Shown here in pieces: positions 14,596-61,279 of a stretch of 64,000 bases of DNA (its first letter is position 1; each line of letters begins with the position of its first letter). The stretch lies in the sequence record MK295204, one strand, 5' to 3'. The notes under the pieces were generated by a model. That model saw only the letters and a program-made list of their open reading frames with translations. It did not search any database and was not told the DNA's origin. The position numbers and the translations under genes are program-made. The DNA comes from Shigella phage vB_SdyM_006.

Positions 14596-15180
14596 ATGTT
14601 TGAAATAACATGTAACGACATAACATACAACGCTAGATATTTCACTCTAGACGAATACGAGGACGTTCTTAATAAAATAACTGATAATAATATTAAAGAC
14701 GCCATTAGTGGGCTCTTAATTGATTGTATAGACTCCTACGATACAAACTTGCCTAAACACTATGCAGAATGTATTTTTCTTAAATTATGGGCTCACAGTT
14801 TAGGTGGAGTAACTAAAGAACTAAATGATATTTTTGTTAATTTTAATTATATAGAAACACCTAAAGAAAAAGGATTTATTTACAAATTAGATGGATTGAG
14901 TCTCAAAATGAGATATCCAAAATTATTTGAAGACTCTGATAAATTAGAAATGGTCATAAATTGTATTGACTCAGTATTATTAGAAGACCAAACAGAAATT
15001 AAAGCTTCAGAGCTTTCTTCAGATGATTTAAACGTTTTATATTCATACTTGACGAAAGACGTAATTTTTTCGTTAAGAGACGAATTACTTAGACCTAAAC
15101 CGTATATCGCTTTTCCTGTTGATGACGAAATTAAAACAATAGAAGGGTTTAAAAATTTATTAGAGGTGATAGATGAGTAA
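14596..15180 (+). CDS. 26: baseplate hub subunit gp26-like
   Basis: 194 aa; AGGAG RBS; directly upstream of gp25. Confidence 0.65.
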   Translation: MFEITCNDITYNARYFTLDEYEDVLNKITDNNIKDAISGLLIDCIDSYDTNLPKHYAECIFLKLWAHSLGGVTKELNDIFVNFNYIETPKEKGFIYKLDGLSLKMRYPKLFEDSDKLEMVINCIDSVLLEDQTEIKASELSSDDLNVLYSYLTKDVIFSLRDELLRPKPYIAFPVDDEIKTIEGFKNLLEVIDE

Positions 15181-15559
15181 AATGAATGTTTTATATTCTG
15201 ACTTAGACCCTAAAATGGAAAAAGGCTGGGATAAAGACCTGCATAAAGTCGTAGGAGATAGGGCTGTCAAAAATTCTATTCTAGGAATAATTAGTACTAG
15301 GAAAGGGTCTAGACCCTTTGACCCAGAATTTGGGTGTAATATAACAGACCAATTATTCGAAAATATGAGTCCATTAATAGAAGACACTATAGAGCGATCT
15401 ATAGTTTCGGCTATTAAAAATTATGAGCCAAGAGTACAAAGATTAAAAGTTTCTGTTACTGCATTGTATGATTCAAATTCTATAGTTGTAGATATTATTT
15501 TTTCTATTGTAGATAATCCAGACACATTAGAACAGATAAAAGTTCAATTATCAAAATAG
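15173..15559 (+). CDS. 25: baseplate wedge protein gp25
   Basis: 128 aa; motif TRKGSRPFDPEFGC and overall co-linearity with T4 gp25. Confidence 0.9.
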   Translation: MSKMNVLYSDLDPKMEKGWDKDLHKVVGDRAVKNSILGIISTRKGSRPFDPEFGCNITDQLFENMSPLIEDTIERSIVSAIKNYEPRVQRLKVSVTALYDSNSIVVDIIFSIVDNPDTLEQIKVQLSK

Positions 15560-15760
15560 TTTACTATAGTTATTAATTTATTACTTAATAGTTATATATA
15601 ATATATAAAGAACTTAATAAAATAATAAAAATTCTGGAGCTGCGCTCCAGATTTCTTTAGAAATAGTAACATATAGTTATTAATTTATTACTTAATAGTT
15701 ATATAGAATATACTATACTTTTAATAAATTAATTTACTAGAGTTACTATTAATAGGCTAT
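15560..15760. repeat. AT-rich intergenic repeat region, copy 1
   Basis: Two copies of ATAGTTATTAATTTATTACTTAATAGTTATATA (from 15566 and 15673); about 85 bp near-identical to 52358..52441. Confidence 0.8.
15634..15650 (+). terminator. hairpin inside repeat region
   Basis: Stem CTGGAGC, loop TGC, stem GCTCCAG, then ATTTCTTT. Confidence 0.5.
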
Positions 15761-15798
15761 TATAATAAAATGGTTATAATGAATCATTTGGAGGAACT

Positions 15799-16209
15799 AT
15801 GAATTTAGAAGAATTACAAACAATGTTATCAGAAGATTTAAGAATTGATCCATTAAAACTTCAATATGAAGCTGCAAATAATCCAACATTATATGGAAAA
15901 TGGTTAAAAATTTATTCTGATATAAAGAAAGGAATTATTTCTTATGAAGCTAATAAGAAAAAACTTTTAAAACAAAGATTAGACCATTATACTGGACGTG
16001 GTGATGAAGTGTGTATGGACTTATATGAAAAATCAGAACTTAAAACTGTTATTGCAGCTGACCCAGAAATTTTGAAAACACAAACATCTGTGGAATATAG
16101 AACATTATTATTGGATTTTGCATCAAAAGCTTTAGATGCTATTAAAGCCCGTGGATTTAGTATTAAGCACATTCTAGAATGTAGACAATTTGAGGCAGGA
16201 ACAAAATGA
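15799..16209 (+). CDS. uvsY: recombination mediator UvsY
   Basis: 136 aa; KLQYEAANN and LLDFxSxALDAIKxRGFxIKHI match T4 UvsY. Confidence 0.9.
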   Translation: MNLEELQTMLSEDLRIDPLKLQYEAANNPTLYGKWLKIYSDIKKGIISYEANKKKLLKQRLDHYTGRGDEVCMDLYEKSELKTVIAADPEILKTQTSVEYRTLLLDFASKALDAIKARGFSIKHILECRQFEAGTK

Positions 16210-16577: not shown

Positions 16578-16583
16578 AAAATA

Positions 16584-16609
16584 AAAGACGAGGGTTACTC
16601 GTCTTTTTC
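16584..16609. terminator. bidirectional terminator
   Basis: Stem AAAGACGAG, loop GGTTAC, stem CTCGTCTTT, flanked by A- and T-runs. Confidence 0.55.
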
Positions 16610-20281: not shown

Positions 20282-22345
20282 TTAAATAATAAATTTTTCT
20301 GGGACAAAAGTAAGATCAACAGCTGTTGATAATAATTCTAGCCCTTTTTGACTAATTTTACCAGTATTTTCTTTTAAGAATTCTTTAAACCCAATTTTTT
20401 CGATTTTTCCTTCAGATAAAAACTTATTTCCGTCAATAAGTTCGCTTTCATCTAGTAATTCTGGATCCACTACAGATGTTTCTACTAATATTGGTCTATT
20501 AAATTCTATATCACGAGCGTTTTCATAACCGTGGATAGAATGAATCTTAAGAGCTAAACCTCTAGGTAAAATCACCTCGCATTCACTAGAGTATTTTGAC
20601 ATATTACCAGGAATAATAACATTGACTTTATGTGCACCTTTAATAGTTATACCCATAGAAATGTTAATATCTGTTTTCTTAGTTGCTTTCTTACCATTAA
20701 CGGCTACACCAATATTTTTTGGTGTCATAACTGTTGATATAACATCATCGAATGTTTCGGATTCAAAAGTTACTGTAGTCGCGTTAGGTTTAATATTATC
20801 AAGAACATCATTTCGTTCCCCAAAAATAATTGGAGCTAATGAAGTCGAAATATAATTAGGAAAATATAATGTTTTATTTTTAGCAGCTTTTTCTACGTCG
20901 GCATAAGGTAATTTTTGTGCTCTATATAAAATAGTTCCTTTTTCTAACTTGGTTCCTTTTTTGAAGGCCCCATCTAAGACAGGAATTTTGTTTTCATACA
21001 CAGATTTTAAACTTTTATCTTTACCAAGCAAAAAGTCGTTCATTTCTTCATATCCACGTAAAGCATAATCTGTGATAACTTTTCGCTCTTCTTCTGTTAA
21101 ATCCATTTCTGTTTCGGTTCTAAATAACTCTTCTAAAGGAGTATAGAAAACATTTCTGTTTAAAGCAGAGATACAGCCTCTTAAAGCTCTAGTCTTAGCC
21201 ACATTATCGTCAGGTCCATATGTTTCTAAATCTTCGGCTATTTTTTTGTAAACATCCATAGCATTATTAGAAGTTTTGAGCGCATTGTTAATTATCAATA
21301 TATACGGTTTTGCTAATTTATATTTTTCTTCACTAGATAAATGATAAAAATTTTCAACACCATACCCAGATATGCGTTCTAAAGAATCTAATAAAAATCT
21401 AGCTTCTAGATCTGATTCTTCTTCACTCACGGCCGAATTTATTTTATCTAAAAACACAGATTTAGATTCATCAATTTTATTAAGGACATTTTTATGAACT
21501 AATGCAATTTTTGTAGAATCACTTTGGACAATAGGAGGATTATCTTGTAGTTCAATATATTTTCTTCTTCCTTCTTCAGAATAATTTTCTAAGTCTTCTG
21601 GTTTAGAAACACCATACATTGCTGATAATAATTCACGTCTAGAAACTTTAGTTTTTGAAATGACAGATCGTTCACTTCTTGTGTTTTCTTGTGCTGCAAT
21701 ACTTCCTGCAATGGCTTCTAATTTAGACACTTGCTTGCCAGTTTTGTCATTGATATACACATCACCTACTTTAGAATCGACTTTAGTATATAAGTCAGAA
21801 TCAATACCAGGAATCCCAGCGATGTCTTCTAAAGGTCTGTTTTTACGATATATTAAAACATAAGCATGTTTACCTGTAAATTGATACAAATCTTCTAAGA
21901 CAACAAATTTACCACCAGTACGTTGCATAGCCAGACGTTTGATTATTCTTTGTAATGTCTTTTCTTGGCCTTTCATTTTTTTAGCAGGGAATCTAAATAA
22001 AACTGCGTCCATTTTAAGTTTTTTAACTTGTTCGTATACAGTGTCAAAAATAGTATTCAATGCCCCAATAGGGTCTGAGCCTAAACCATTTCTTAATTCT
22101 GCTGCATTACCATTTTTAGACAAACTCATCAAAAACACTTGAACAAATTTATCACCTTGCTTTACTGCTTTTAATGCATCGCCTTTAGATAAATAAGACA
22201 CCATTCTAACTAAAAGATTGTCATTTCCAGGAACACTGACATTCCATAATTGAGGGACCTTAGCCCTTTTATTAAGATTAATAGCTTTATATTGAGCTAT
22301 TTCTGAATCAAAAACCTCATTTAAATTAATTTCATTTAATTCCAT
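20282..22345 (-). CDS. alt: ADP-ribosyltransferase Alt
   Basis: 687 aa (T4 Alt 682 aa); R-S-E type motifs YRAQ, YISTS, ECEVILPRG; late promoter upstream. Confidence 0.85.
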   Translation of the reverse strand: MELNEINLNEVFDSEIAQYKAINLNKRAKVPQLWNVSVPGNDNLLVRMVSYLSKGDALKAVKQGDKFVQVFLMSLSKNGNAAELRNGLGSDPIGALNTIFDTVYEQVKKLKMDAVLFRFPAKKMKGQEKTLQRIIKRLAMQRTGGKFVVLEDLYQFTGKHAYVLIYRKNRPLEDIAGIPGIDSDLYTKVDSKVGDVYINDKTGKQVSKLEAIAGSIAAQENTRSERSVISKTKVSRRELLSAMYGVSKPEDLENYSEEGRRKYIELQDNPPIVQSDSTKIALVHKNVLNKIDESKSVFLDKINSAVSEEESDLEARFLLDSLERISGYGVENFYHLSSEEKYKLAKPYILIINNALKTSNNAMDVYKKIAEDLETYGPDDNVAKTRALRGCISALNRNVFYTPLEELFRTETEMDLTEEERKVITDYALRGYEEMNDFLLGKDKSLKSVYENKIPVLDGAFKKGTKLEKGTILYRAQKLPYADVEKAAKNKTLYFPNYISTSLAPIIFGERNDVLDNIKPNATTVTFESETFDDVISTVMTPKNIGVAVNGKKATKKTDINISMGITIKGAHKVNVIIPGNMSKYSSECEVILPRGLALKIHSIHGYENARDIEFNRPILVETSVVDPELLDESELIDGNKFLSEGKIEKIGFKEFLKENTGKISQKGLELLSTAVDLTFVPEKFII

Positions 22346-22375
22346 TTTATCACCTTTATAATAAGAATATATTAC

Positions 22376-22383
22376 TATTTATA
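22376..22383 (-). promoter_or_regulatory. late promoter TATAAATA for alt
   Basis: Exact TATAAATA on minus strand about 30 nt before alt ATG. Confidence 0.55.
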
Positions 22384-22387
22384 CCAA

Positions 22388-22410
22388 AAAGGAGACCGAA
22401 GTCTCCTTGT
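22388..22410 (-). terminator. intrinsic terminator (UUCG tetraloop family)
   Basis: Minus strand AAGGAGAC-TTCG-GTCTCCTT then T-run; same hairpin at 27314..27336, near-copy at 26969..26992. Confidence 0.6.
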
Positions 22411-22425
22411 TTTTATATTATTTAT

Positions 22426-22635: not shown

Positions 22636-22675
22636 AATATACTCCGTTGTTTCCGTGTGTTGTTTCAATATGTAT

Positions 22676-22704
22676 ATAATAACATGTCTACAGCAAAAGT
22701 AAAC
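22676..22704 (-). promoter_or_regulatory. T4-type early promoter, cassette copy 2
   Basis: Minus strand GTTTAC, 17 nt, TATTAT; leader near-identical to copies at 8063 and 22989. Confidence 0.6.
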
Positions 22705-22723
22705 ATGTTATTGTGGCTTTTTA

Positions 22724-22960: not shown

Positions 22961-22988
22961 TATATACTCCATTTTCGTATGTTGTTTC

Positions 22989-23017
22989 AATATGTATATA
23001 ATAACATGTCTACAGCA
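22989..23017 (-). promoter_or_regulatory. T4-type early promoter, cassette copy 3
   Basis: Minus strand GTTTAC, 17 nt, TATTAT, directly after terminator hairpin. Confidence 0.6.
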
Positions 23018-23022
23018 AAAGT

Positions 23023-23038
23023 AAACAAAAAAGAGCCT
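23023..23038 (-). terminator. intrinsic terminator fused to early promoter
   Basis: Minus strand stem AGAGCC, loop GAAA, stem GGCTCT, TTTTTT, then GTTTAC. Confidence 0.55.
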
Positions 23039-25296: not shown

Positions 25297-25739
25297 TATG
25301 CATCCTCATATTTAATTGCCATAAGAGCCTTTTTAGTGAATTCGTAGATGTCAATATTTTTAACACCTTGGCTTAAAATAGATTCCACTGTTTTATCAAG
25401 AACTGGCTTAATAAAAGGTCCTTGAAGATTCATTGTTCCAGTTCTATCTTTAAATGCGATAACGAATTTACGATCGACCCAATTATTTTTGGGTTCAAGA
25501 TTTTCTATTTTTTCAAAATAACCATGTTCATCAACGTCAATAATAAACGCTACTGTAAAATCGTCTTCGGTTAAAGTTTCGTCACCACATTTAAGTTTTT
25601 TGACATGTCCACTTTCGTCAAGTTCAATAACTTTAAATGGGCTATTTGAGATAGCATTAGCAATACGTTCATTAGAATAATTTTCATCAACAAATCCGTC
25701 AATGTCAATTAATTTATACCAACCATTTAATTCAAACAT
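25296..25739 (-). CDS. hypothetical protein, tandem paralog (147 aa)
   Basis: SNSPFKVIELDESG resembles GKNPFKVLALGPGN of next gene. Confidence 0.5.
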   Translation of the reverse strand: MFELNGWYKLIDIDGFVDENYSNERIANAISNSPFKVIELDESGHVKKLKCGDETLTEDDFTVAFIIDVDEHGYFEKIENLEPKNNWVDRKFVIAFKDRTGTMNLQGPFIKPVLDKTVESILSQGVKNIDIYEFTKKALMAIKYEDA

Positions 25740-25746
25740 AGTATTC

Positions 25747-26199
25747 TCACTTAAAAGTAATAGATTGGGTGATTTCAGCAGTTTTATCTAAAGTATACAT
25801 TTCAACTTTACCAGTAGGATTTTTTGTTAAAAATGCTTCGATACTTTTATGTGCTGATTCTTCATCTAGAGGAACTGAAGAAGTTTCTACACCGTTTAAA
25901 ATTTGGACTAAAACTACACGGGCTGACGGGACTACAACTTCATTAAAATACTCCACTTCATATTTAGAAATCACCACTGTTAATTGAGAGTCAAAATCAG
26001 AAGGTGTGTATTCTTTTCCGTTAATTGAAATTAAAACAACATCACGATTGCCAGGCCCAAGAGCTAAAACTTTAAAAGGATTTTTCCCAATAAGGTTATA
26101 AATTTTTTCATTATATGCCGAGTACTCTTTAAACTCGTGTTCATTGATAAGTTGATAAGATTTACCGATTTCAAATTCAAAAGCTGTTTTAGTTTTCAT
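25747..26199 (-). CDS. hypothetical protein, tandem paralog (150 aa)
   Basis: See previous feature. Confidence 0.5.
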   Translation of the reverse strand: MKTKTAFEFEIGKSYQLINEHEFKEYSAYNEKIYNLIGKNPFKVLALGPGNRDVVLISINGKEYTPSDFDSQLTVVISKYEVEYFNEVVVPSARVVLVQILNGVETSSVPLDEESAHKSIEAFLTKNPTGKVEMYTLDKTAEITQSITFK

Positions 26200-26200
26200 A

Positions 26201-26521
26201 TTAGGACCTTATTTTTAAGATTGTTTTCATTGCAGCAACTAATGGTTTTTTATCCTCAACCCAGTCATCACAACATAAATTTTCATTATCGAAATTATTG
26301 TATCTAGAACCTAGACAATGTAAACCGATAAATGTATCATTTGATGTTTTTGTTACACTGATATCATGGTCTAACATTAAGACCCAAGCTTGATTAATAT
26401 TATTACATGGATCAAATTTTAAGCCATTAATATAAACAAATAACTTAAACCCTTGGTTTTCTACTGTGTATTCATACCCAAGACTTTTAGCTAGTTCAAT
26501 ATTAATATCAAGTTCAGTCAT
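26201..26521 (-). CDS. hypothetical protein (106 aa)
   Basis: ORF. Confidence 0.5.
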   Translation of the reverse strand: MTELDINIELAKSLGYEYTVENQGFKLFVYINGLKFDPCNNINQAWVLMLDHDISVTKTSNDTFIGLHCLGSRYNNFDNENLCCDDWVEDKKPLVAAMKTILKIRS

Positions 26522-26955
26522 AACCGTCTCCTTAAAGATGTCAATATACCACAGAATTCTTGGTTTGTTAATATAGTTTCGAACTTATTTTCGCATCCTA
26601 TAGTATGAACTAATGTTTTATCGCCTGTTGCTCTCAGAGCATCTCTGAATGATTTATTCTGATTAAACATATGAATATATGCTCTGACTAGTAAACGTTT
26701 GTAGGCTTCACTGTGACGATTAATAGGGCATCCATTATACCACATAGTGTCATTTTTCATTTTAGGACCAGCTAATTTGGCCTTTAATCCATGCAGTTTA
26801 AACACTTCAGATTGTTCTTTAGGGTCTTTAATTTTTAATCCTTGTAAAAATCCTTCTATACTGCCAAAGAGCTGATTGTCCATTTTAAAAGGATGCTCAG
26901 CAAAATTACTTAAAGCACATGAAGGCCAAGGGCCTCTAGAATGAATATCAATCAT
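26518..26955 (-). CDS. NADAR (YbiA-like) domain protein
   Basis: LSNF..PF, S.E.F.Q..K and MFNQN..FRDALRATGDKTLVH align with E. coli YbiA motifs FSNF..P, TSEHYFQAQKF and KFEQH..LRALLLATAPAKLVEH. Confidence 0.7.
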   Translation of the reverse strand: MIDIHSRGPWPSCALSNFAEHPFKMDNQLFGSIEGFLQGLKIKDPKEQSEVFKLHGLKAKLAGPKMKNDTMWYNGCPINRHSEAYKRLLVRAYIHMFNQNKSFRDALRATGDKTLVHTIGCENKFETILTNQEFCGILTSLRRRL

Positions 26956-26968
26956 ATATCCTCTAAAC

Positions 26969-26992
26969 CAAAAAAGGAGACCGGAGTCTCCT
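26969..26992 (-). terminator. intrinsic terminator (tetraloop family)
   Basis: Minus strand AGGAGAC-TCCG-GTCTCCT then TTTTTT. Confidence 0.55.
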
Positions 26993-26999
26993 TAATCAT

Positions 27000-27264: not shown

Positions 27265-27294
27265 ATAATATCCTTTTTTAAAAGAGAAGTAAAC
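27265..27294 (-). promoter_or_regulatory. T4-type early promoter
   Basis: Minus strand GTTTAC, 18 nt, TATTAT, immediately after terminator. Confidence 0.5.
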
Positions 27295-27313
27295 ACTTAT
27301 TTTCAATAAAACC

Positions 27314-27336
27314 AAAAAAGGAGACCGAAGTCTCCT
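27314..27336 (-). terminator. intrinsic terminator (UUCG tetraloop family)
   Basis: Same hairpin as 22388..22410. Confidence 0.6.
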
Positions 27337-27342
27337 TAAATT

Positions 27343-37237: not shown

Positions 37238-37377
37238 TTTAATCCTTAATTTTTCTTTTTACAAGGGTCCCATCTTTTACTGCTTTGTCATAAGCAATTT
37301 TAATTAATCGTAGACGTTCCACTTTAGAATTTCTAATTTTGTTAAAATCTATCTCGGACGAATCCGAGATAGTTGTA

Positions 37378-44434: not shown

Positions 44435-44463
44435 ATAATATCACGCTAAAAATCTTTGTAAAC
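44435..44463 (-). promoter_or_regulatory. T4-type early promoter
   Basis: Minus strand GTTTAC, 17 nt, TATTAT, just after gp32 terminator. Confidence 0.55.
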
Positions 44464-44482
44464 ATTTATTTTCTATAAAACC

Positions 44483-44508
44483 AAAAAAGGAACCCGAAGG
44501 TTCCTTTT
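44483..44508 (-). terminator. intrinsic terminator after gene 32
   Basis: Minus strand AGGAACC-TTCG-GGTTCCT then TTTTTT. Confidence 0.6.
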
Positions 44509-44517
44509 ATTAAGAAA

Positions 44518-47591: not shown

Positions 47592-50500
47592 ATGACTTTA
47601 AATAAATCACTTAAAGCAACGTACGGACTTGATGCCTCTAATGAAAAAGTTATAAATGTCGGATTAGCTGACAAAAATACTTTAACAGATGGCGTTAATG
47701 TCGAATTTTTAATTCAAGAAAACACAATCCAAGCATACGACAAAAATCGTGGATATGAAAAAGGCTTTGCTGTTATATTTGAAAATAGAATTTATGTTTC
47801 AAATCAAAAAATAGAATCTCCAGCTGGAGATTTTGAGCCTCATAAATGGTTTTCTTTACGTGTAGACCCTAAATGGGACACGGTATTTGAAACCGTAGCA
47901 TCAGGTCAAATTATAACATCAGGACAGTTTATTGCAGCTAATACGTCAATAAACGATTTATATTTTAAATTGCCTAGAAAACCACAACCAGGTGATACAA
48001 TTTGTATCAAAGAGGTCTCTGGTAATTCAGGCTATAAGTTCCTTAAAATAGGTAAAACCGATAATAATATTTTATGGAACGGAACTAATGTTGAAGAATT
48101 ATATCTAACACGTCCGTATTCGCAAACTTATTTTATATTTTCTGGGAACGTTTGGAATGTATTTCAAATAGAGCACGAAGATATTGGTAGAATAATATCT
48201 ACTTCACCATTAAAGCAACAAGTTTCTTCTGGAGAGAGATTATATAGATTATCCAATACTGGTCCTATCAATATCATGTTACCTAAATATGCTATGCATG
48301 GTGATGTTATTGAGATGTTTGATATTGATGGATTAACTTCAATAAATCACTTAACTCTTTACACGTCTGAAGGGTCTGGGCATGCTATAGGAACTTTAGG
48401 ACAATCTAAATTAGAAATAAGAACTATTGGTAACGGGCGATTAGTATTTGATAGTTCTAATAATCTATGGAGATTATGGGACGGCGATATAAGAACTCGT
48501 TTAAAAACTATCAAAGAAGATCGTAAACTATTACCTAATGAACAGGTTCTTGTCTATGGGATGAATAATACAGTTAAAGAAACCGTCACTCTAACGTTAC
48601 CTAGAAATATTGCTGTCGGTGACACAGTTGAGATTTCTTTAGGTTATATGAGAAAAGGCCAGACAGTTATCATAAAGACTGAGGGCGATGATATTATTGG
48701 GACTGATAAAACATTATTACAATTCCCTAAACGATCTCAGTATCCGCCTGAAATGACCTGGGTTGAAGTAAAAGAACTTGTGTTTAATGGTACTGATGAT
48801 TATTTACCTTATTTAAAATTTGCGTATGTAGAAACATTATCTGATTTAGGGTGGGCAGTTCAACATTATCGTCCTAATGTTGAGCGTGTAGATTTTAAAA
48901 ATCCAGAAAGAATCGGATTGATAGCATTAGCTACTCAAGATCAAGCAAACAAAGATCATGAAAACAACCCAGAAAAAGAATTGGCTGTAACACCATTTAC
49001 TTTGGCAAATAGAGTTGCTACAGAAGAACGACGTGGTATTGCTAAAACAGCAAAAACTTCTATGGTCAATCAAAACTCAAATGGAAAATTTGAAGATGAC
49101 ACAATTGTCACACCTAAAAAATTAAACGAACGAACAGCTACAGAAGAACGACGTGGCCTAGCCGAAATTGCTACTCAAGAAGAAACAAATACAGGTAAAG
49201 ATGATACGACTATTGTTTCTCCATTAAAACTCGAGAACAGGAAAGCCTCAGAAACTTTATCTGGTATTGCTAAAATAGTCCCATCTAAAGGAACGCCAGG
49301 AACACAGCGTGATAAACAAGGAACTGGTGTTTATAATTACACGGATAATAAGACTATTGTTTCTCCTTCAGCTATACATGAGCTTTTAAGTACAGAAAAT
49401 TCTCATGGTGTTGTTTATTTAGCTTCTGAAACTGAAGTTATTGAAGCACCAGATATGGACCCTAAATTTCCTGTTGCTGTAACTCCGGTTCAATTACATA
49501 AGAAAACTGCTACAGAAGATAGAATAGGTTTCTCTCAAATCGCTACACAAGAAGAAACTGATGAAGGAACTGATAATTTTAAATTTATAACACCTAAAAA
49601 ATTAAATGATCGAAGATCAACAGAAACTTTAGAAGGTATCTCAAGATACGCTACTTATGAAGAGTTTAAAAAAGGTGATTCAAATTTAATATCCGAGCCT
49701 AATAAAATAAAACAGTTTTTACAAGAAGCAAGAATAAAAGTTGTTCCTGAATCTGGAATAGTTTTTACTGGTAATATTTGGGACACATGTAATTTTGATA
49801 TCAAACCTTCAACTGAAGTTGATAGAGGGACATTAAAATTATCAACTCAAGGCCAAGCTAATACTGGTGAAGATGATACAACAGCAATTACACCTAAAAA
49901 ATTACATAATAAAAAATCAACTGAATTGGTTGAAGGTATAATCCAACTTTCTAATTACGCTGAAACAATAGCAGGTGATGTTAATAATAAAGCAATATCT
50001 CCTCAGAATTTTGTTTTAGCTGTTCAAACAGAAAATAATGGATTAGAAGCCTCTACTTCTTTACGTGGATTTGTTAGACTGTTAGATGGTGCTAGTATTT
50101 GGCAAGGAACAGATGAATCTGGTAGTGACCCGGATAATGAAGACTTTTTGCATAATGGATATGCAGTATCTCCACGAGAATTAAATAAAGCTTTAAGTCA
50201 TTATCTTCCTATCAAAGGAAAAGCAGTTAACTCTACTTTATTTGATGACTTAAAAACTTCTGATTTTATTAGAAGAAACATAGACCAAGAAATTGATGGG
50301 GATATGACTTTTAATAACCCAGTTATTCTTAAAGATACATTAGTTTCTACAAGTTCTGGTAAATTTGAATCACTAGAAAGTAAAACGGTTTCTGTCGGTG
50401 ACGGTACTAAAGGTTCAATAAACTTTTTGTCTGCTACACCATGGAAAATTGATGTACAAGATGATTTCAAAATTAACAATGTAAAAATTGATAAAGATGA

Positions 50501-51248
50501 AGTTATCCATTCTAAAGGATTAGAAACAATTTCTCATGTTGACACTTCAGAATATAGATTAAATGGTAAAACATTTATTTCTGGACAAGGTACTATCAAT
50601 GTAGGTGATGCTGAATCTCAAATTAGATTCCAATCCAAAAATCCTAATGATGTTAGAATTTCTGGCTCTACAATTATTGTTAATACCAATTTAGAAGAAA
50701 AAGGTAATAAGCACTTTATTAATCGTAAACAAGATACCGTTGACGGAGATATTGAATTTACTAAACCAGTTAAAATCAATATCCAAGAAAATATGGTTGA
50801 AGTTTCCGAAGGTATATTTGTTGCCAAAATAACTTCTAAACAAGAATATGAGAAATATCCAGGTATTGCAGTTCCTAAAATAGACCAAGAAACACAAAAA
50901 GTTATTGATTATACTTATGTTAAAGGACCTGGTACACTTACTCAATATGGTGATACTAAATCTTATACATACAGAATCTGGGCTCCACAAGCTTTAGGTC
51001 AAGAAGATAATCATAACAACTATTCATTATGGATGCAGGTTTATAATCCAGTTAAAGGAGAATTTGATGCATGGGGTAGAATATACACATCTCAAAATCC
51101 ACCAACTGCTGCTGAAATAGGAGCTGTGTCTTCATCTGGTTCTACTTTCGAAACACTTAAAGTTAATCAATGGTTACAAGTTGGACCTGTAAGAATGGTT
51201 CCAGACCCAGTAACTAAAACTGTAAGGTATATATGGATCGATGAGTAA
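47592..51248 (+). CDS. 34: long tail fibre proximal subunit gp34
   Basis: 1218 aa; N-terminus matches T4 gp34 pattern (GLDA..K.INV.LAD...TDGVNV..LIQENT.Q.YD..RGY). Confidence 0.9.
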   Translation: MTLNKSLKATYGLDASNEKVINVGLADKNTLTDGVNVEFLIQENTIQAYDKNRGYEKGFAVIFENRIYVSNQKIESPAGDFEPHKWFSLRVDPKWDTVFETVASGQIITSGQFIAANTSINDLYFKLPRKPQPGDTICIKEVSGNSGYKFLKIGKTDNNILWNGTNVEELYLTRPYSQTYFIFSGNVWNVFQIEHEDIGRIISTSPLKQQVSSGERLYRLSNTGPINIMLPKYAMHGDVIEMFDIDGLTSINHLTLYTSEGSGHAIGTLGQSKLEIRTIGNGRLVFDSSNNLWRLWDGDIRTRLKTIKEDRKLLPNEQVLVYGMNNTVKETVTLTLPRNIAVGDTVEISLGYMRKGQTVIIKTEGDDIIGTDKTLLQFPKRSQYPPEMTWVEVKELVFNGTDDYLPYLKFAYVETLSDLGWAVQHYRPNVERVDFKNPERIGLIALATQDQANKDHENNPEKELAVTPFTLANRVATEERRGIAKTAKTSMVNQNSNGKFEDDTIVTPKKLNERTATEERRGLAEIATQEETNTGKDDTTIVSPLKLENRKASETLSGIAKIVPSKGTPGTQRDKQGTGVYNYTDNKTIVSPSAIHELLSTENSHGVVYLASETEVIEAPDMDPKFPVAVTPVQLHKKTATEDRIGFSQIATQEETDEGTDNFKFITPKKLNDRRSTETLEGISRYATYEEFKKGDSNLISEPNKIKQFLQEARIKVVPESGIVFTGNIWDTCNFDIKPSTEVDRGTLKLSTQGQANTGEDDTTAITPKKLHNKKSTELVEGIIQLSNYAETIAGDVNNKAISPQNFVLAVQTENNGLEASTSLRGFVRLLDGASIWQGTDESGSDPDNEDFLHNGYAVSPRELNKALSHYLPIKGKAVNSTLFDDLKTSDFIRRNIDQEIDGDMTFNNPVILKDTLVSTSSGKFESLESKTVSVGDGTKGSINFLSATPWKIDVQDDFKINNVKIDKDEVIHSKGLETISHVDTSEYRLNGKTFISGQGTINVGDAESQIRFQSKNPNDVRISGSTIIVNTNLEEKGNKHFINRKQDTVDGDIEFTKPVKINIQENMVEVSEGIFVAKITSKQEYEKYPGIAVPKIDQETQKVIDYTYVKGPGTLTQYGDTKSYTYRIWAPQALGQEDNHNNYSLWMQVYNPVKGEFDAWGRIYTSQNPPTAAEIGAVSSSGSTFETLKVNQWLQVGPVRMVPDPVTKTVRYIWIDE

Positions 51249-52359
51249 TATAATGGTTGAATTCGGCCAAGATTATGTAGGTGCTCAAACGTTTGCAGAG
51301 AACAATGCACTTACATATAAGTTAACTATTAAGGCTAGTAATAAAAACACACAGGGTGAATCCTGTGTGTTAATTAACGATAATCAAATAACAACTGAAT
51401 GCGATACTGGTATTAATGTTTGGGTCATTAATAATATAGGTAAACTTGATAATACTATGTGTTTTGATGTATCAACAGAATCTGGTATAACAGCATTTAT
51501 AACATTTTTGAAAGAACAAACTTCTGGAATAATTTGTTTAGCTTCATCTAACGAATTAGATTCAACTCAAGTCTTAGCTGATTATATGAAATCTATAGGT
51601 TCTGCTTCATGGAATAATTTTATGATTTCTAAAATCAAAACAGTGTCTTATGCAGCAGTCTATCGTCCAGAATTAAAATCCATTGTTCTGGAATCTATAC
51701 AATATTCTGATGGAATTAAAGAAGATGAATTACTTGAGTTAGAAACCATTTTTGATTCTAATAATTCTATAGGAATAACAGGATTTCCTGGTTCAATCGT
51801 ATATGATTATAAAGAATACACGTCAATTGAACAAGATTATAAAAAATGGCCTACTAATCTTTTAAATAACAAGCTTTCTGATTATGGTCTTAAACCTGGC
51901 GATTGGGTTTCTTTGAGTGCTTCTATATTTGGAGATAAAGAATTAAAAGATGACGGTGGATGGACTAGAATAGATTGTAGATGGGTATTTGGTAATGCAT
52001 GGAAACAATCATTTTATTTAGAAAGTACATTGAAAGGGAATTATCCTGTTCAGTCTATGGTTAATCCTGGTATCTGGGAATCTAAAACAGTTTATTCTCA
52101 AATACCAGAAGGTGTAGATGGATTTGTTATAATAGCTTCAAGATATAATTCAGACTTAGGCCATTCTGCTGTAAAAAATGTTGCATTCGGAAGAGCTGCA
52201 GAACCTATAATAGAAAAATCTGATAGACAAATAGGTATAAATGGTATTAGAAATTCTTTTGTAAAAGAGGAAGAACAAAAAGTAGGATCGTTATTAAGTT
52301 TGTTAAATCTTAAAGACAAATCCGACACAGTTTCTTCTATAAACTTTAAAGAAATATAG
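51241..52359 (+). CDS. 35: long tail fibre hinge protein gp35
   Basis: 372 aa (T4 gp35 372 aa); follows gp34. Confidence 0.7.
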   Translation: MSNIMVEFGQDYVGAQTFAENNALTYKLTIKASNKNTQGESCVLINDNQITTECDTGINVWVINNIGKLDNTMCFDVSTESGITAFITFLKEQTSGIICLASSNELDSTQVLADYMKSIGSASWNNFMISKIKTVSYAAVYRPELKSIVLESIQYSDGIKEDELLELETIFDSNNSIGITGFPGSIVYDYKEYTSIEQDYKKWPTNLLNNKLSDYGLKPGDWVSLSASIFGDKELKDDGGWTRIDCRWVFGNAWKQSFYLESTLKGNYPVQSMVNPGIWESKTVYSQIPEGVDGFVIIASRYNSDLGHSAVKNVAFGRAAEPIIEKSDRQIGINGIRNSFVKEEEQKVGSLLSLLNLKDKSDTVSSINFKEI

Positions 52360-52525
52360 TAACATATAGTTATTAATTTATTACTTAATAGTTATATAGA
52401 ATATACTAGACTTTTAATAAATTAATTTACTAGAGTTACTAATTTATTACTTAATAGTTATATATAATATAAAGAACTTAATAAAAATAATAAATTCTGG
52501 GAGCTTTGCTCCCAGTTTTCTTTAG
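52358..52525. repeat. AT-rich intergenic repeat region, copy 2 (rearranged)
   Basis: 52358..52441 near-identical to 15663..15748; 52441..52515 similar to 15574..15650, including hairpin. Confidence 0.8.
52497..52515 (+). terminator. hairpin inside repeat, compensatory variant of 15634..15650
   Basis: Stem CTGGGAGC, loop TTT, stem GCTCCCAG, then TTTTCTTT. Confidence 0.5.
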
Positions 52526-52547
52526 AAAATGCTCTTTTATAAATAGT

Positions 52548-52555
52548 ATAAAGAA
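52548..52555 (+). promoter_or_regulatory. late promoter TATAAATA for gene 36
   Basis: Exact TATAAATA 11 nt before gp36 ATG. Confidence 0.5.
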
Positions 52556-52565
52556 AGGAGATTAT

Positions 52566-53030
52566 ATGGCAGATCTTAAAAGAGGAAGTACTGCTGGAGG
52601 AGAATTAATCCTTACACAAGGTAATTTTCCATTAATTCCAGTAGGAAATTCCTTATATTTTAATAAGCATAAAGTCTATACCGAACACGATAAGCCTACA
52701 GCAGAAGAAGTTGATTCTGTTTCGGCATCTAAAGGTGGAGAATTTAAAGAAAGAGTAATTTTTAAAGAATTACAGGTAGGGAAACAAGACCCTTTAATTA
52801 TTAAAGACCATTCTATAGCTGGGACTGAAATAATTCTTAAACAATTAGAAATTAAAAACTTAGAAAAATCATTACTAGTTCTTAATCCTGATAATCCAGA
52901 ATTACTTCAAGTTCAATCAATGAAAACAGATAGATTGGTTTTAGACACAATATCAACTCAACCTAATCATGCAGTTAGATATGACCAAGTGGTTCTTGTT
53001 GGAGATATTATAGATTTTGGAGAATTCTAA
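52566..53030 (+). CDS. 36: long tail fibre distal connector gp36
   Basis: MADLKRGSTAGGELILTQGNFPL matches T4 gp36 N-terminus; track ORF has 20-codon extension; AGGAG RBS. Confidence 0.85.
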   Translation: MADLKRGSTAGGELILTQGNFPLIPVGNSLYFNKHKVYTEHDKPTAEEVDSVSASKGGEFKERVIFKELQVGKQDPLIIKDHSIAGTEIILKQLEIKNLEKSLLVLNPDNPELLQVQSMKTDRLVLDTISTQPNHAVRYDQVVLVGDIIDFGEF

Positions 53031-58892: not shown

Positions 58893-58922
58893 ATAATACT
58901 ATATCTAAAAAGCTTTGTAAAC
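58893..58922 (-). promoter_or_regulatory. T4-type early promoter for motA
   Basis: Minus strand GTTTAC, 18 nt, TATTAT, directly after terminator. Confidence 0.55.
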
Positions 58923-58942
58923 AGTTATTTTCAATAAAATGC

Positions 58943-58966
58943 AAAAAGGAGCACAAGGCTCCTTAA
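58943..58966 (-). terminator. intrinsic terminator
   Basis: Minus strand AAGGAGCC-TTGT-GCTCCTT then TTTT; near-identical hairpin at 59901..59920. Confidence 0.55.
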
Positions 58967-58974
58967 ATATAAGA

Positions 58975-59866: not shown

Positions 59867-59896
59867 ATAATATCATGATAACATTTGTATGTAAAC
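59867..59896 (-). promoter_or_regulatory. T4-type early promoter
   Basis: Minus strand GTTTAC, 18 nt, TATTAT, directly after gp52 terminator. Confidence 0.5.
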
Positions 59897-59900
59897 AAAA

Positions 59901-59920
59901 AAAGGAGCACAAGGCTCCTT
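59901..59920 (-). terminator. intrinsic terminator after gene 52
   Basis: Same hairpin as 58943..58966, then TTTTTTT. Confidence 0.55.
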
Positions 59921-59923
59921 AAA

Positions 59924-61279
59924 TTACGCTAAAATATTATCAATATCTTTTTTGTACTCAACATCAGGTGTTGTAGACTTCCAATACTGATATTCTTTTT
60001 TATGTTCTTTTGCAGAATCTTCTAGTTTTTTAATTTCGTCTTTTGTCATGTGATATAAATTCATAGAAATCAATTTATCAGCAAAAGGCTTAAGGTCTTG
60101 GAATTGTTCAATTGATTCTAATGCAGCTTTTTTACTTTTACCAGATAGTTCAATAGTGCCATCAAGGACTTTTTTAATAAAAACAACTTTGGCTTTTGCG
60201 TATTCGTACCCATATTCTGATTCAGAAATTTTTAGGTCAATTCGTTTTTGATAAAACGGCTTTCTTACTTCAACAAAATATTTAATTAGCTCAGATGCTG
60301 TTTTAAAATCATCCCTAATTCTACCTTGGTCATCAATAACTGTAAAAAACTGACCTATTTTTTGAGACAACCCAAACTCTTTAATAATTTGTTCATGTCG
60401 TTCTTTAGGGTCTGTTTTAAGGTCAAAATCTTTTTTCAATGTAATCTTAAACCCAAATTTAACTTGACCTGTTTTTTCGTCTTTACCAGAAAGGTCATCA
60501 TATTCTGCTATTTTACCTTGATTAACCAAATTATCTAAAACTTTTACCGTATAGTCTTCTCGTTCCCATTTATATGGAATTTCTGTAATTGTTAGTTGTG
60601 TTTTACCTTTAAGTTCATATGTTCCTTGTAGTTCAACACCAGCTTCAGTAGGAATAATTTTACCATTAAACTGTGGGTATTGAACTTCAGGTTCTTTATC
60701 TAACTTACCTTCAATTGCTAATTTAGTGCATTCAACAACAGATTTTAAAGAATGTGGAAGAATATTTGTTGCATAACCAGTTGCAATACCTTTTACGCCA
60801 TTTAAAAGAACAGTAGGAATAATAGGCAAATAAAATTTAGGAGGAACATGTTCAATATCTTTGTGCTCTGGAGAAATCTCAATATCTTTATATAAATCAA
60901 AGAAATTCTGAGAGATTCTACAGAAAACATAACGAGCTGCACCACCTTTTTGGATTAATCTTGAACCAAAAGCACCTTGCCCATCTAAAAAAGGAACATT
61001 ATTATTCCAATCATTTGCCATTAATTTACCAGCTTCGGCAGCAGAGCCTTCACCATGATGATAACCAATTTCAGCTACACCACCAGACAAACCAGCTAAT
61101 TTATGGAATTTCTTTCTATCACCTTTAGCTTTTTCTAAAGCACGGTAAATTATAAATCGCTGAACAGGTTTAAATCCATCAACTAGATTAGGAATAGCAC
61201 GTTCTTCAACTGTATAAAGTGCATACTCTTTAGCTTCTATGTCAATAATACTTTTTAATGAACGGATATTTAATTCCAT
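59924..61279 (-). CDS. 52: DNA topoisomerase II medium subunit gp52
   Basis: 451 aa (T4 gp52 about 441 aa); GyrA-like N-terminus (AIPNLVDGFKPVQRFIIY, active-site-Tyr region ARYVFCRIS); AGGAG RBS. Confidence 0.8.
   Translation of the reverse strand: MELNIRSLKSIIDIEAKEYALYTVEERAIPNLVDGFKPVQRFIIYRALEKAKGDRKKFHKLAGLSGGVAEIGYHHGEGSAAEAGKLMANDWNNNVPFLDGQGAFGSRLIQKGGAARYVFCRISQNFFDLYKDIEISPEHKDIEHVPPKFYLPIIPTVLLNGVKGIATGYATNILPHSLKSVVECTKLAIEGKLDKEPEVQYPQFNGKIIPTEAGVELQGTYELKGKTQLTITEIPYKWEREDYTVKVLDNLVNQGKIAEYDDLSGKDEKTGQVKFGFKITLKKDFDLKTDPKERHEQIIKEFGLSQKIGQFFTVIDDQGRIRDDFKTASELIKYFVEVRKPFYQKRIDLKISESEYGYEYAKAKVVFIKKVLDGTIELSGKSKKAALESIEQFQDLKPFADKLISMNLYHMTKDEIKKLEDSAKEHKKEYQYWKSTTPDVEYKKDIDNILA

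Follow-up and report, generated by a model that had tools for sequence, protein, structure and literature searches.

A conserved terminator- and promoter-like cassette at four intergenic sites of Bragavirus and Gualtarvirus phages

The stretch of 64,000 nucleotides (nt) of Shigella phage vB_SdyM_006 analysed here (sequence record MK295204, hereafter 'the window') carries, in its spacers gp25|uvsY ('site A') and gp35|gp36 ('site B'), an AT-rich repeat made of a conserved core and a perfect hairpin. In whole genomes the same element occupies two further junctions beyond the window, gp2|gp3 ('site C') and the junction between an open reading frame (ORF) of 473 aa and gp55 ('site D'). Our preferred reading, to which we give about an even chance, is that of a recombining cassette of terminator/promoter type, conserved at four sites in the phage genera Bragavirus and Gualtarvirus, and a variant of the promoter-early stem-loop (PeSL) elements. 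Two modules were distinguished: 'module X', which consists of the core, an A-rich tract, the hairpin and a T-run, and 'module Y', which consists of the core and a 40-nt tail. Judged from the sequence, the hairpin, between its A and T runs, would most likely be a factor-independent terminator that insulates neighbouring transcription units, and the further copies of the core, in module Y and next to uvsY, would most likely belong to the promoter region just before the downstream gene. The four sites would exchange sequence by ectopic homologous recombination, which would keep the copies alike and reshuffle their modules (X-Y versus Y-X), and template switching during replication would keep the palindrome perfect, change both of its arms at once and invert its loop.

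An earlier note on this DNA had described a large AT-rich repeat common to the gp25-uvsY and gp35-gp36 spacers, with its blocks in rearranged order, and both observations hold. A block of 86 nt (15663-15748 and 52356-52441) is 99% identical between the two spacers, with 1 mismatch, and a 23-mer, ATTTATTACTTAATAGTTATATA, has exactly four exact copies in the window, two per spacer (at 15576, 15683, 52376 and 52442), where none would be expected by chance. No further copy with up to three mismatches was found in the window. The order of blocks is permuted: site A reads X-Y and then a degenerate third core, and site B reads Y-X.

The window was assigned by megablast to Bragavirus, a genus of T4-like Proteus phages in the family Straboviridae; phiP4-3 and SJ_PmiM are about 99% identical to it, and Pm5461 and PM2 84 to 89%. 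The sister genus Gualtarvirus was sampled by Providencia phage PSTRCR_127 and Morganella phage Rgz1. A composite genome of the window and phiP4-3 (166,577 bp), which served for the genome-wide scan of cores and for the computation of duplex stability, contains exactly eight cores at four sites when up to four mismatches are allowed. An exact scan of IMG/VR, in which the relatives were the genomes of Pm5461 and phiP4-3 only, returned the same four loci in each, two of the four lying outside the window; the eight matches of a metagenome scan for more relatives were all unrelated and at chance level. What had been taken for a two-site feature is thus a four-site one in whole genomes, which adds gp2|gp3 and the region upstream of gp55.

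At each of the four sites the cassette begins at the stop codon of the upstream gene and is co-oriented with both flanking genes (4/4 sites). In phiP4-3, too, module X follows the gp2 stop codon. In PSTRCR_127 and Rgz1, module X was found at the same four junctions, after the stops of gp25, gp35, gp2 and the ORF that precedes gp55, and the arrangement is therefore older than the split between Bragavirus and Gualtarvirus. The earlier note had considered that absence of the motif from relatives would point to a recent duplication; it is present in every Bragavirus and at the same four Gualtarvirus sites, and is therefore not a recent duplication. At site C, module Y directly adjoins the ribosome-binding site of gp3 and is the sole sequence between the hairpin and that site. 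In every public record that we checked, annotation of the cassettes is partial or missing, and a literature search on repeats or transcriptomes of these phages returned nothing.

The core of the element is under strong constraint. In the flanking genes, the window and Pm5461 agree at 67% of third codon positions, while the 23-mer is invariant in all copies obtained by the exact scan and by the scan with up to four mismatches; one copy, at site D of PM2, has a C-to-T change. A 31-mer, AGTTATTAATTTATTACTTAATAGTTATATA, is exact in 24 copies from five genomes, and the Y core before gp3 contains a 26-mer that is identical between Bragavirus and Gualtarvirus. The most conserved part of the element is its AT-rich core, not the hairpin, and the loop positions are the most variable.

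Copies within a lineage resemble each other more than they resemble their counterparts in the other lineage. Over 75 nt of the Y block, sites B and D show 1 difference in the lineage of the window and 0 in Pm5461, compared to 5 to 6 differences between orthologous copies of the two lineages. At site A of Pm5461, the gp3 leader of site C has been copied in front of the hairpin. Since paralogues are closer than orthologues and modules have been copied from site to site, the sites recombine with one another, in line with one of the roles, that of recombination substrate, put forward in the earlier note. A further sign of exchange is a 49-bp tandem duplication in phiP4-3, at the end of gp25 and site A (positions 1041-1138), made of the last 16 nt of gp25 and the head of module X. 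The window, SJ_PmiM, Pm5461 and PM2 all lack this duplication.

Shuffling, duplication and exchange of modules between sites could be taken to mean that the repeat has no function, being recombination debris or a selfish repeat that spread from spacer to spacer, and it is indeed absent from the equivalent spacers of T4. There, the gp35|gp36 spacer holds a hairpin and TATAAATA in an arrangement like that of site B, and the gp25|uvsY spacer holds the uvsY middle promoter. The occupation of the same four sites in two genera, the restriction to four sites that are all co-oriented with the flanking genes, and the invariance of the 23-mer in the scanned copies in the face of 33% divergence at third codon positions nevertheless make absence of function very improbable indeed.

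The hairpins show an unusual kind of variation. Read on the gene-sense strand, the loop at site A is TGC in the window and GCA in phiP4-3, SJ_PmiM, Pm5461 and PM2. At site B it is TTT in the window, AAA in phiP4-3 and SJ_PmiM, GAA in Pm5461 and TTC in PM2. The loops of site C are GCA (phiP4-3), ACA (SJ_PmiM), TGC (Pm5461) and GCA (PM2), and those of site D, for the same phages, GAA, GCA, TTC and GAA. In Gualtarvirus, PSTRCR_127 and Rgz1 have, respectively, GTA and TAC at site A, TTT and TTT at site B, TTT and TT at site C, and GCA and GTA at site D; the four spacers of this pair differ only inside the loops, with one flip. In the two close Bragavirus pairs, five of the six comparisons gave loops that are exact reverse complements of each other, compared to 0 of 32 for other hairpins. 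These controls comprised about 17 other hairpins mapped between the window and phiP4-3 (identity about 99%) and 15 between Pm5461 and PM2 (96.9%), with no flip in either pair. With the Gualtarvirus pair added, the proportion of exact reverse complements is 6 of 10, and two more comparisons show other loop changes. Loop inversion is thus specific to the hairpin family of the cassette and close to saturation between genomes that are 97 to 99% identical. We know of no comparable locus-specific loop flip-flop in T4-like phages, and a literature search for one in these phages found none.

The stems stay perfect through their changes of sequence, which give the arms CTGGAGC, CTGGGAGC, CTGGGGAG and CAAGGAGC; between sites A and B, both perfect, the difference is a paired G/C insertion. 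Mutation of quasi-palindromes by template switching is reportedly the subject of a T4 model due to Ripley. In template switching during replication, loop inversions are produced, and compensatory changes on both arms of a stem arise in one event (PMC8794818). The cassette hairpins resemble the products of such mutation in having exact reverse-complement loops between unchanged perfect arms and in the joint change of both arms; they differ in that the inversions are near saturation and limited to one hairpin family at four loci.

This bears on an interpretation that follows the earlier note in its argument for selection on structure: the hairpin would be a selected RNA structure, mainly a signal for processing or stability, and the AT-rich repeat would be incidental. 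The perfect stems across four arm sequences would fit it, as would RNA folds significantly more stable than those of shuffled sequence. The observation of paired changes that preserve the stem stands; that they demonstrate selection on structure does not, since template switching makes two-arm changes in one event, and paired stem variants alone are then no proof of selection on RNA structure. Loop inversions and one-step changes of both arms can come from template switching without selection, which suffices to account for the repeated exact inversions. As the AT-rich core is also more conserved than the hairpin, and the loops are the most variable part, we hold this interpretation to be improbable. 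The hairpins are a natural example of very frequent loop inversion tied to particular loci, and a caution against taking paired stem changes as proof of selection.

We now return to the terminator/promoter cassette and its anatomy, all of it on the plus strand, the hairpins excepted, to which no strand is assigned. At site A, module X (15556..15662) starts from the gp25 stop codon. Its core (copy 1, 15565..15610, with the 23-mer at 15576-15598) has a box TTTATTA at the -30 position (15577-15583) and a -10-like TATAAT (15597-15602). The A-rich tract CTTAATAAAATAATAAAAAT (15611..15632), source of an antisense T-run, lies within the least stable duplex of the genome. It is followed by the hairpin TCTGGAGC-TGC-GCTCCAGA (15633..15651), perfect and terminator-like on both strands, and by the T-run and tail TTTCTTTAGAA (15652..15662); in the RNA fold, the tail pairs with TAAAGAA at 15606-15612. 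Module Y (15663..15748) is the 86-nt block, with the 23-mer at 15683-15705 and a -10-like TAGAAT at 15704-15709. The degenerate third core spans 15733-15786 and merges into the uvsY-proximal promoter region; the part that lies beyond module Y (15749..15798) has TATAAT at 15761-15766 and 15775-15780 and the ribosome-binding site GGAGG at 15790-15794. The uvsY-proximal region also contains TATAATGAATC, a match to PuvsY of T4.

Site B starts with module Y, from the gp35 stop (52356..52441; 23-mer 52376-52398; TAGAAT 52397-52402), and continues with the core and A-rich tract of module X (52442..52496; 23-mer 52442-52464; TATAAT 52463-52468). The hairpin CTGGGAGC-TTT-GCTCCCAG (52497..52515) is again perfect and terminator-like on both strands. 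The remainder (52516..52566) holds a T-run, a canonical late promoter and the gp36 ribosome-binding site. The late promoter is an exact TATAAATA at 52538-52545, 22 nt past the hairpin. It falls just beyond the range considered in the earlier note, according to which the spacers lacked this sequence. The same note had placed both spacers at boundaries between late and early transcription units, which does not apply to gp35|gp36, a late|late junction.

The proposal that the hairpins could be terminators fared better. The stems are perfect and GC-rich, of 8 to 9 bp with a 3-nt loop, and their folding energies range from -13.5 to -16.2 kcal/mol (z-scores of -3.1 to -4.5 relative to shuffled sequence). 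A terminator scan, which judges shape only, found that the hairpins fit on both strands at Bragavirus sites A, B and C, and the authors of the Pm5461 record annotated terminators at the hairpins of sites B and D. The intrinsic-terminator shape, seen on both strands at A and B, is consistent with a terminator. The antisense T-run, which derives from the conserved A tract, is present at every site. A GC-rich perfect stem between an A-run and a T-run, with the pattern on both strands, is what a bidirectional intrinsic terminator looks like; the cassette departs from this type by its 3-nt loop, by a sense T-run that is missing at several sites, and by its tie to an invariant core of 23 to 31 nt.

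A further perfect hairpin of 10 bp, AAAAGACGAG-GGTTA-CTCGTCTTTT, is found at 16583-16607, between the converging uvsY.-1 (plus strand) and the next gene on the minus strand. It is likely a bidirectional terminator, and its loop is the same in phiP4-3.

The layout of the core is that of a T4 middle promoter: a box, TTTATTA, at about -30, a 13-bp spacer, and TATAAT or TAGAAT. Compared to the MotA consensus TGCTTxA, the box of the repeated core is not a MotA box. Only one copy comes near this consensus, the uvsY-proximal core of Gualtarvirus (tAGCTTTA-13-TATAAT), which aligns with T4 PuvsY, ATAATGCTTCA-13-TATAATGAATC. The genes for MotA and AsiA are present in the window. Inspection of the opposite strand of the core revealed neither a convincing -10 element nor a convincing box. 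A variant of the late promoter (TATAAAGA in module X, TATAGAAT in module Y) was also envisaged and found unsupported: TATAAATA lies upstream of only 10 genes, and its near-variants are scattered.

Such a composite of promoter-type sequence and stem-loop recalls the PeSLs, the promoter-early stem-loop cassettes of T4-type phages, which include a sigma-70 consensus early promoter and are found in large numbers beside ORFans, in hyperplastic parts of the genome (Arbiol et al. 2010, PMC2839356; Comeau et al. 2014, PMC4122927). Like them, the present cassette is a short composite intergenic repeat, with promoter-type sequence and a terminator stem-loop, that recurs in one T4-like genome. It also resembles them as a point of homologous exchange at which sequence is reshuffled, as seen here in the concerted evolution and in the copying of modules between sites, and by its adjacent stable stem-loop, whose function as a terminator is suggested by its shape only. 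The cassette differs in having neither a sigma-70 -35 nor an early-promoter consensus, in being placed at exactly four junctions between conserved core genes, with positions kept across two genera, and in a stem with a 3-nt loop that inverts.

The window also contains a second family of repeats, on the minus strand, at 22360-22413, 26945-26998, 27289-27342, 44458-44511, 58917-58970 and 59872-59925. In each, a GC hairpin closed by a UUCG-type tetraloop precedes a T-run and then TTTTATTGAAAATAAgTGTTTAC-N17-18-(G)ATATTAT. This layout, a terminator and a T4-type early promoter before early genes, is that of true PeSL-like cassettes. Besides these, a sequence of 56 nt occurs twice at 96% identity, 322 bp apart (22650-22705 and 22972-23027), at the starts of two small minus-strand ORFs.

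Several points weigh against the four-site element being a terminator/promoter cassette. Regarding its promoter part, scans of the core gave no good sigma-70 -35/-10 pair. Two promoter classes were tried and rejected for the core: the canonical MotA middle promoter, for want of a TGCTT box, though canonical TGCTTxA promoters exist elsewhere in the genome, and the T4-type early promoter, for a mismatch to the phage's own GTTTAC-N17-18-ATATTAT. A contiguous invariant stretch of 23 to 31 bp also exceeds ordinary promoter constraint. Regarding the terminator part, the sense-strand T-run is weak or missing at four sites, D of Bragavirus and A, C and D of Gualtarvirus, and termination in the sense direction therefore cannot be the conserved function. 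The other terminators of the phage have UUCG-type tetraloops, compared to the 3-nt loops of the cassettes. The two parts also combine awkwardly in module X, whose core precedes the hairpin: sense-strand transcription that started at the one and stopped at the other would yield an RNA of only about 50 nt. Finally, the least stable duplex, the near-even spacing of the sites and the hypermutable loops are left unexplained.

An RNA of about that length could itself be the product, module X being then a small-RNA gene in four copies, with the core as promoter, the hairpin as terminator and an AU-rich transcript of about 50 nt. Multi-copy families of small RNAs are known in bacteria. The -10-like TATAAT about 30 nt upstream of a terminator-shaped hairpin would suit such a gene, and the tract that would be transcribed, AATAAAA(A)TAATAAA, is conserved between the genera. 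The presumed promoter is more conserved than the RNA body, however, which has indels between genera and between sites; the sense U-tract is absent at the four sites just listed (Bragavirus D; Gualtarvirus A, C and D); and no RNA structure is seen beyond the hairpin. A search of Rfam for a known RNA family returned only matches at chance level. We consider a small-RNA gene distinctly improbable.

The features that a terminator/promoter cassette leaves aside are those that would point to replication. The cassette could be an origin like oriF, or a DNA-unwinding module, in four copies. As an origin, its promoter-like core would fire into an AT-rich unwinding element, as in T4 ori(uvsY) and ori(34), and a persistent R-loop would prime the leading strand; alternatively, the GC palindrome would extrude from easily melted flanks and become an entry point for replication or recombination proteins. 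In either version the four sites would often be single-stranded, which would explain the loop inversions. This we regard as rather unlikely, though several observations speak for it.

Site A is exactly the spacer in which oriF of T4 is annotated; site C is about 3 kb away from the T4 position of oriE, and site B about 3 kb from that of oriG. With windows of 40, 60, 100, 150 and 200 bp, no other duplex in the 166.6-kb genome is as unstable as the four sites, and at 100 bp they are about 5 standard deviations from the mean, in terms of computed nearest-neighbour stability rather than measured unwinding. They are also spaced nearly evenly, with gaps of 36 to 49 kb; were four points placed at random on a circle, the probability of such spacing, by (1-4x)^3, would be about 0.004, a value calculated post hoc. 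Low stability is shared by construction, all four sites having one sequence, and even spacing is shared by synteny, so that these are not four independent observations.

The confinement of loop inversion to the cassette hairpins can likewise be counted in favour of an origin or unwinding module. The loops themselves are mostly of one type: in about 20 of 26, one of the two strands has a GNA triloop with a C:G closing pair (GCA, GAA or GTA, read as the complement on the opposite strand), the others being AAA, TTT, ACA and TT. A GNA loop with this closing pair is a stable DNA mini-hairpin motif reported from sites where phage replication and transcription start (PMC13037366). However, AAA and TTT account for several loops, and the 7-mer GCGNAGC is not enriched genome-wide (12 found compared to about 10 expected), so that the mini-hairpin idea is a lead only.

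Comparison with the origins of T4 speaks rather against an origin. Both oriF and oriG consist of a MotA middle promoter and an A+T-rich unwinding element, and no motif is common to the origins of T4 (Kreuzer and Brister 2010, PMC3016281). The MotA-dependent promoter of this type of origin is TGCTTxA placed 11 to 13 bp upstream of TAnnnT, and the rules that place the origins of T4 are still open (PMC3016281). The cassette resembles oriF and oriG by a promoter-type sequence beside some 100 bp of very AT-rich, easily unwound DNA. It differs in presenting one sequence at four sites with an integral GC hairpin, as the T4 origins share little sequence and have no conserved palindrome. Its repeated core has no MotA box, which both T4 origins need, and the unwinding element of T4 sits downstream of PuvsY, inside uvsY, not upstream. 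No T4 origin is located near gene 55, which leaves site D without a T4 counterpart; oriC, according to the review, lies near rI.-1. A conserved canonical MotA-type promoter, antisense in gene 34 (48217-48192), would be a better analogue of oriG. That the cassette runs in the direction of the genes on either side, at 4 of 4 sites, suggests a role linked to transcription.

The antisense promoter of gene 34 (48192-48217, minus strand, about 600 bp into the gene) reads TGCTTTA-N13-TATTAT; the box and -10, but not the spacer between them, are conserved in Pm5461. This promoter may correspond to ori(34) of T4, or it may be a middle promoter that serves rnh. Gene 34, which encodes the proximal part of the long tail fibre, also has internal direct repeats of 31 and 41 nt (49017-49925), spaced by multiples of 12 bp, which probably correspond to repeated protein motifs.

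T4-like phages are a model for the timing of transcription and for origin- and recombination-dependent replication. If the four sites were origins, one shared sequence would define the origin set of a T4-like phage, with sites about a quarter of a genome apart; the GC palindrome would then extrude, or fold in single-stranded DNA, often enough for its loop to flip back and forth. One sequence at four evenly spaced junctions, including the oriF spacer, provides in any case a mutable target with which to ask whether cassettes, unwinding elements and origins coincide.

The genes around the two spacers of the window were identified from ORFs and from the public annotation of related records, and all are on the plus strand. 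Upstream of site A are gp26 and then gp25 (15173-15559, stop TAG at 15557-15559), and downstream is uvsY (15799-16209). Site B lies between gp35 (51241-52359, stop TAG at 52357-52359) and gp36, whose ATG is at 52567.

Some minor observations concern the genomes compared. The circular record of PSTRCR_127 has its first position within the last part of gp2, some 150 nt before the site C cassette (record positions 1-310), and carries an N at position 69, which may reflect trouble in assembly near the repeat. Around sites A and B, SJ_PmiM shares about 99% identity with phiP4-3, and around sites C and D only about 90%; the site C spacer of SJ_PmiM has its modules arranged as in Pm5461 and PM2, and the SJ_PmiM genome is therefore a mosaic. 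Relative to phiP4-3, the window is without two insertions: the homing-endonuclease gene between nrdA and nrdB (window ~37238-37377; phiP4-3 25714-26344), and the insertion of about 1 kb in the thymidylate synthase gene, annotated as an I-TevI-like endonuclease (window ~41320; phiP4-3 21019-22071).

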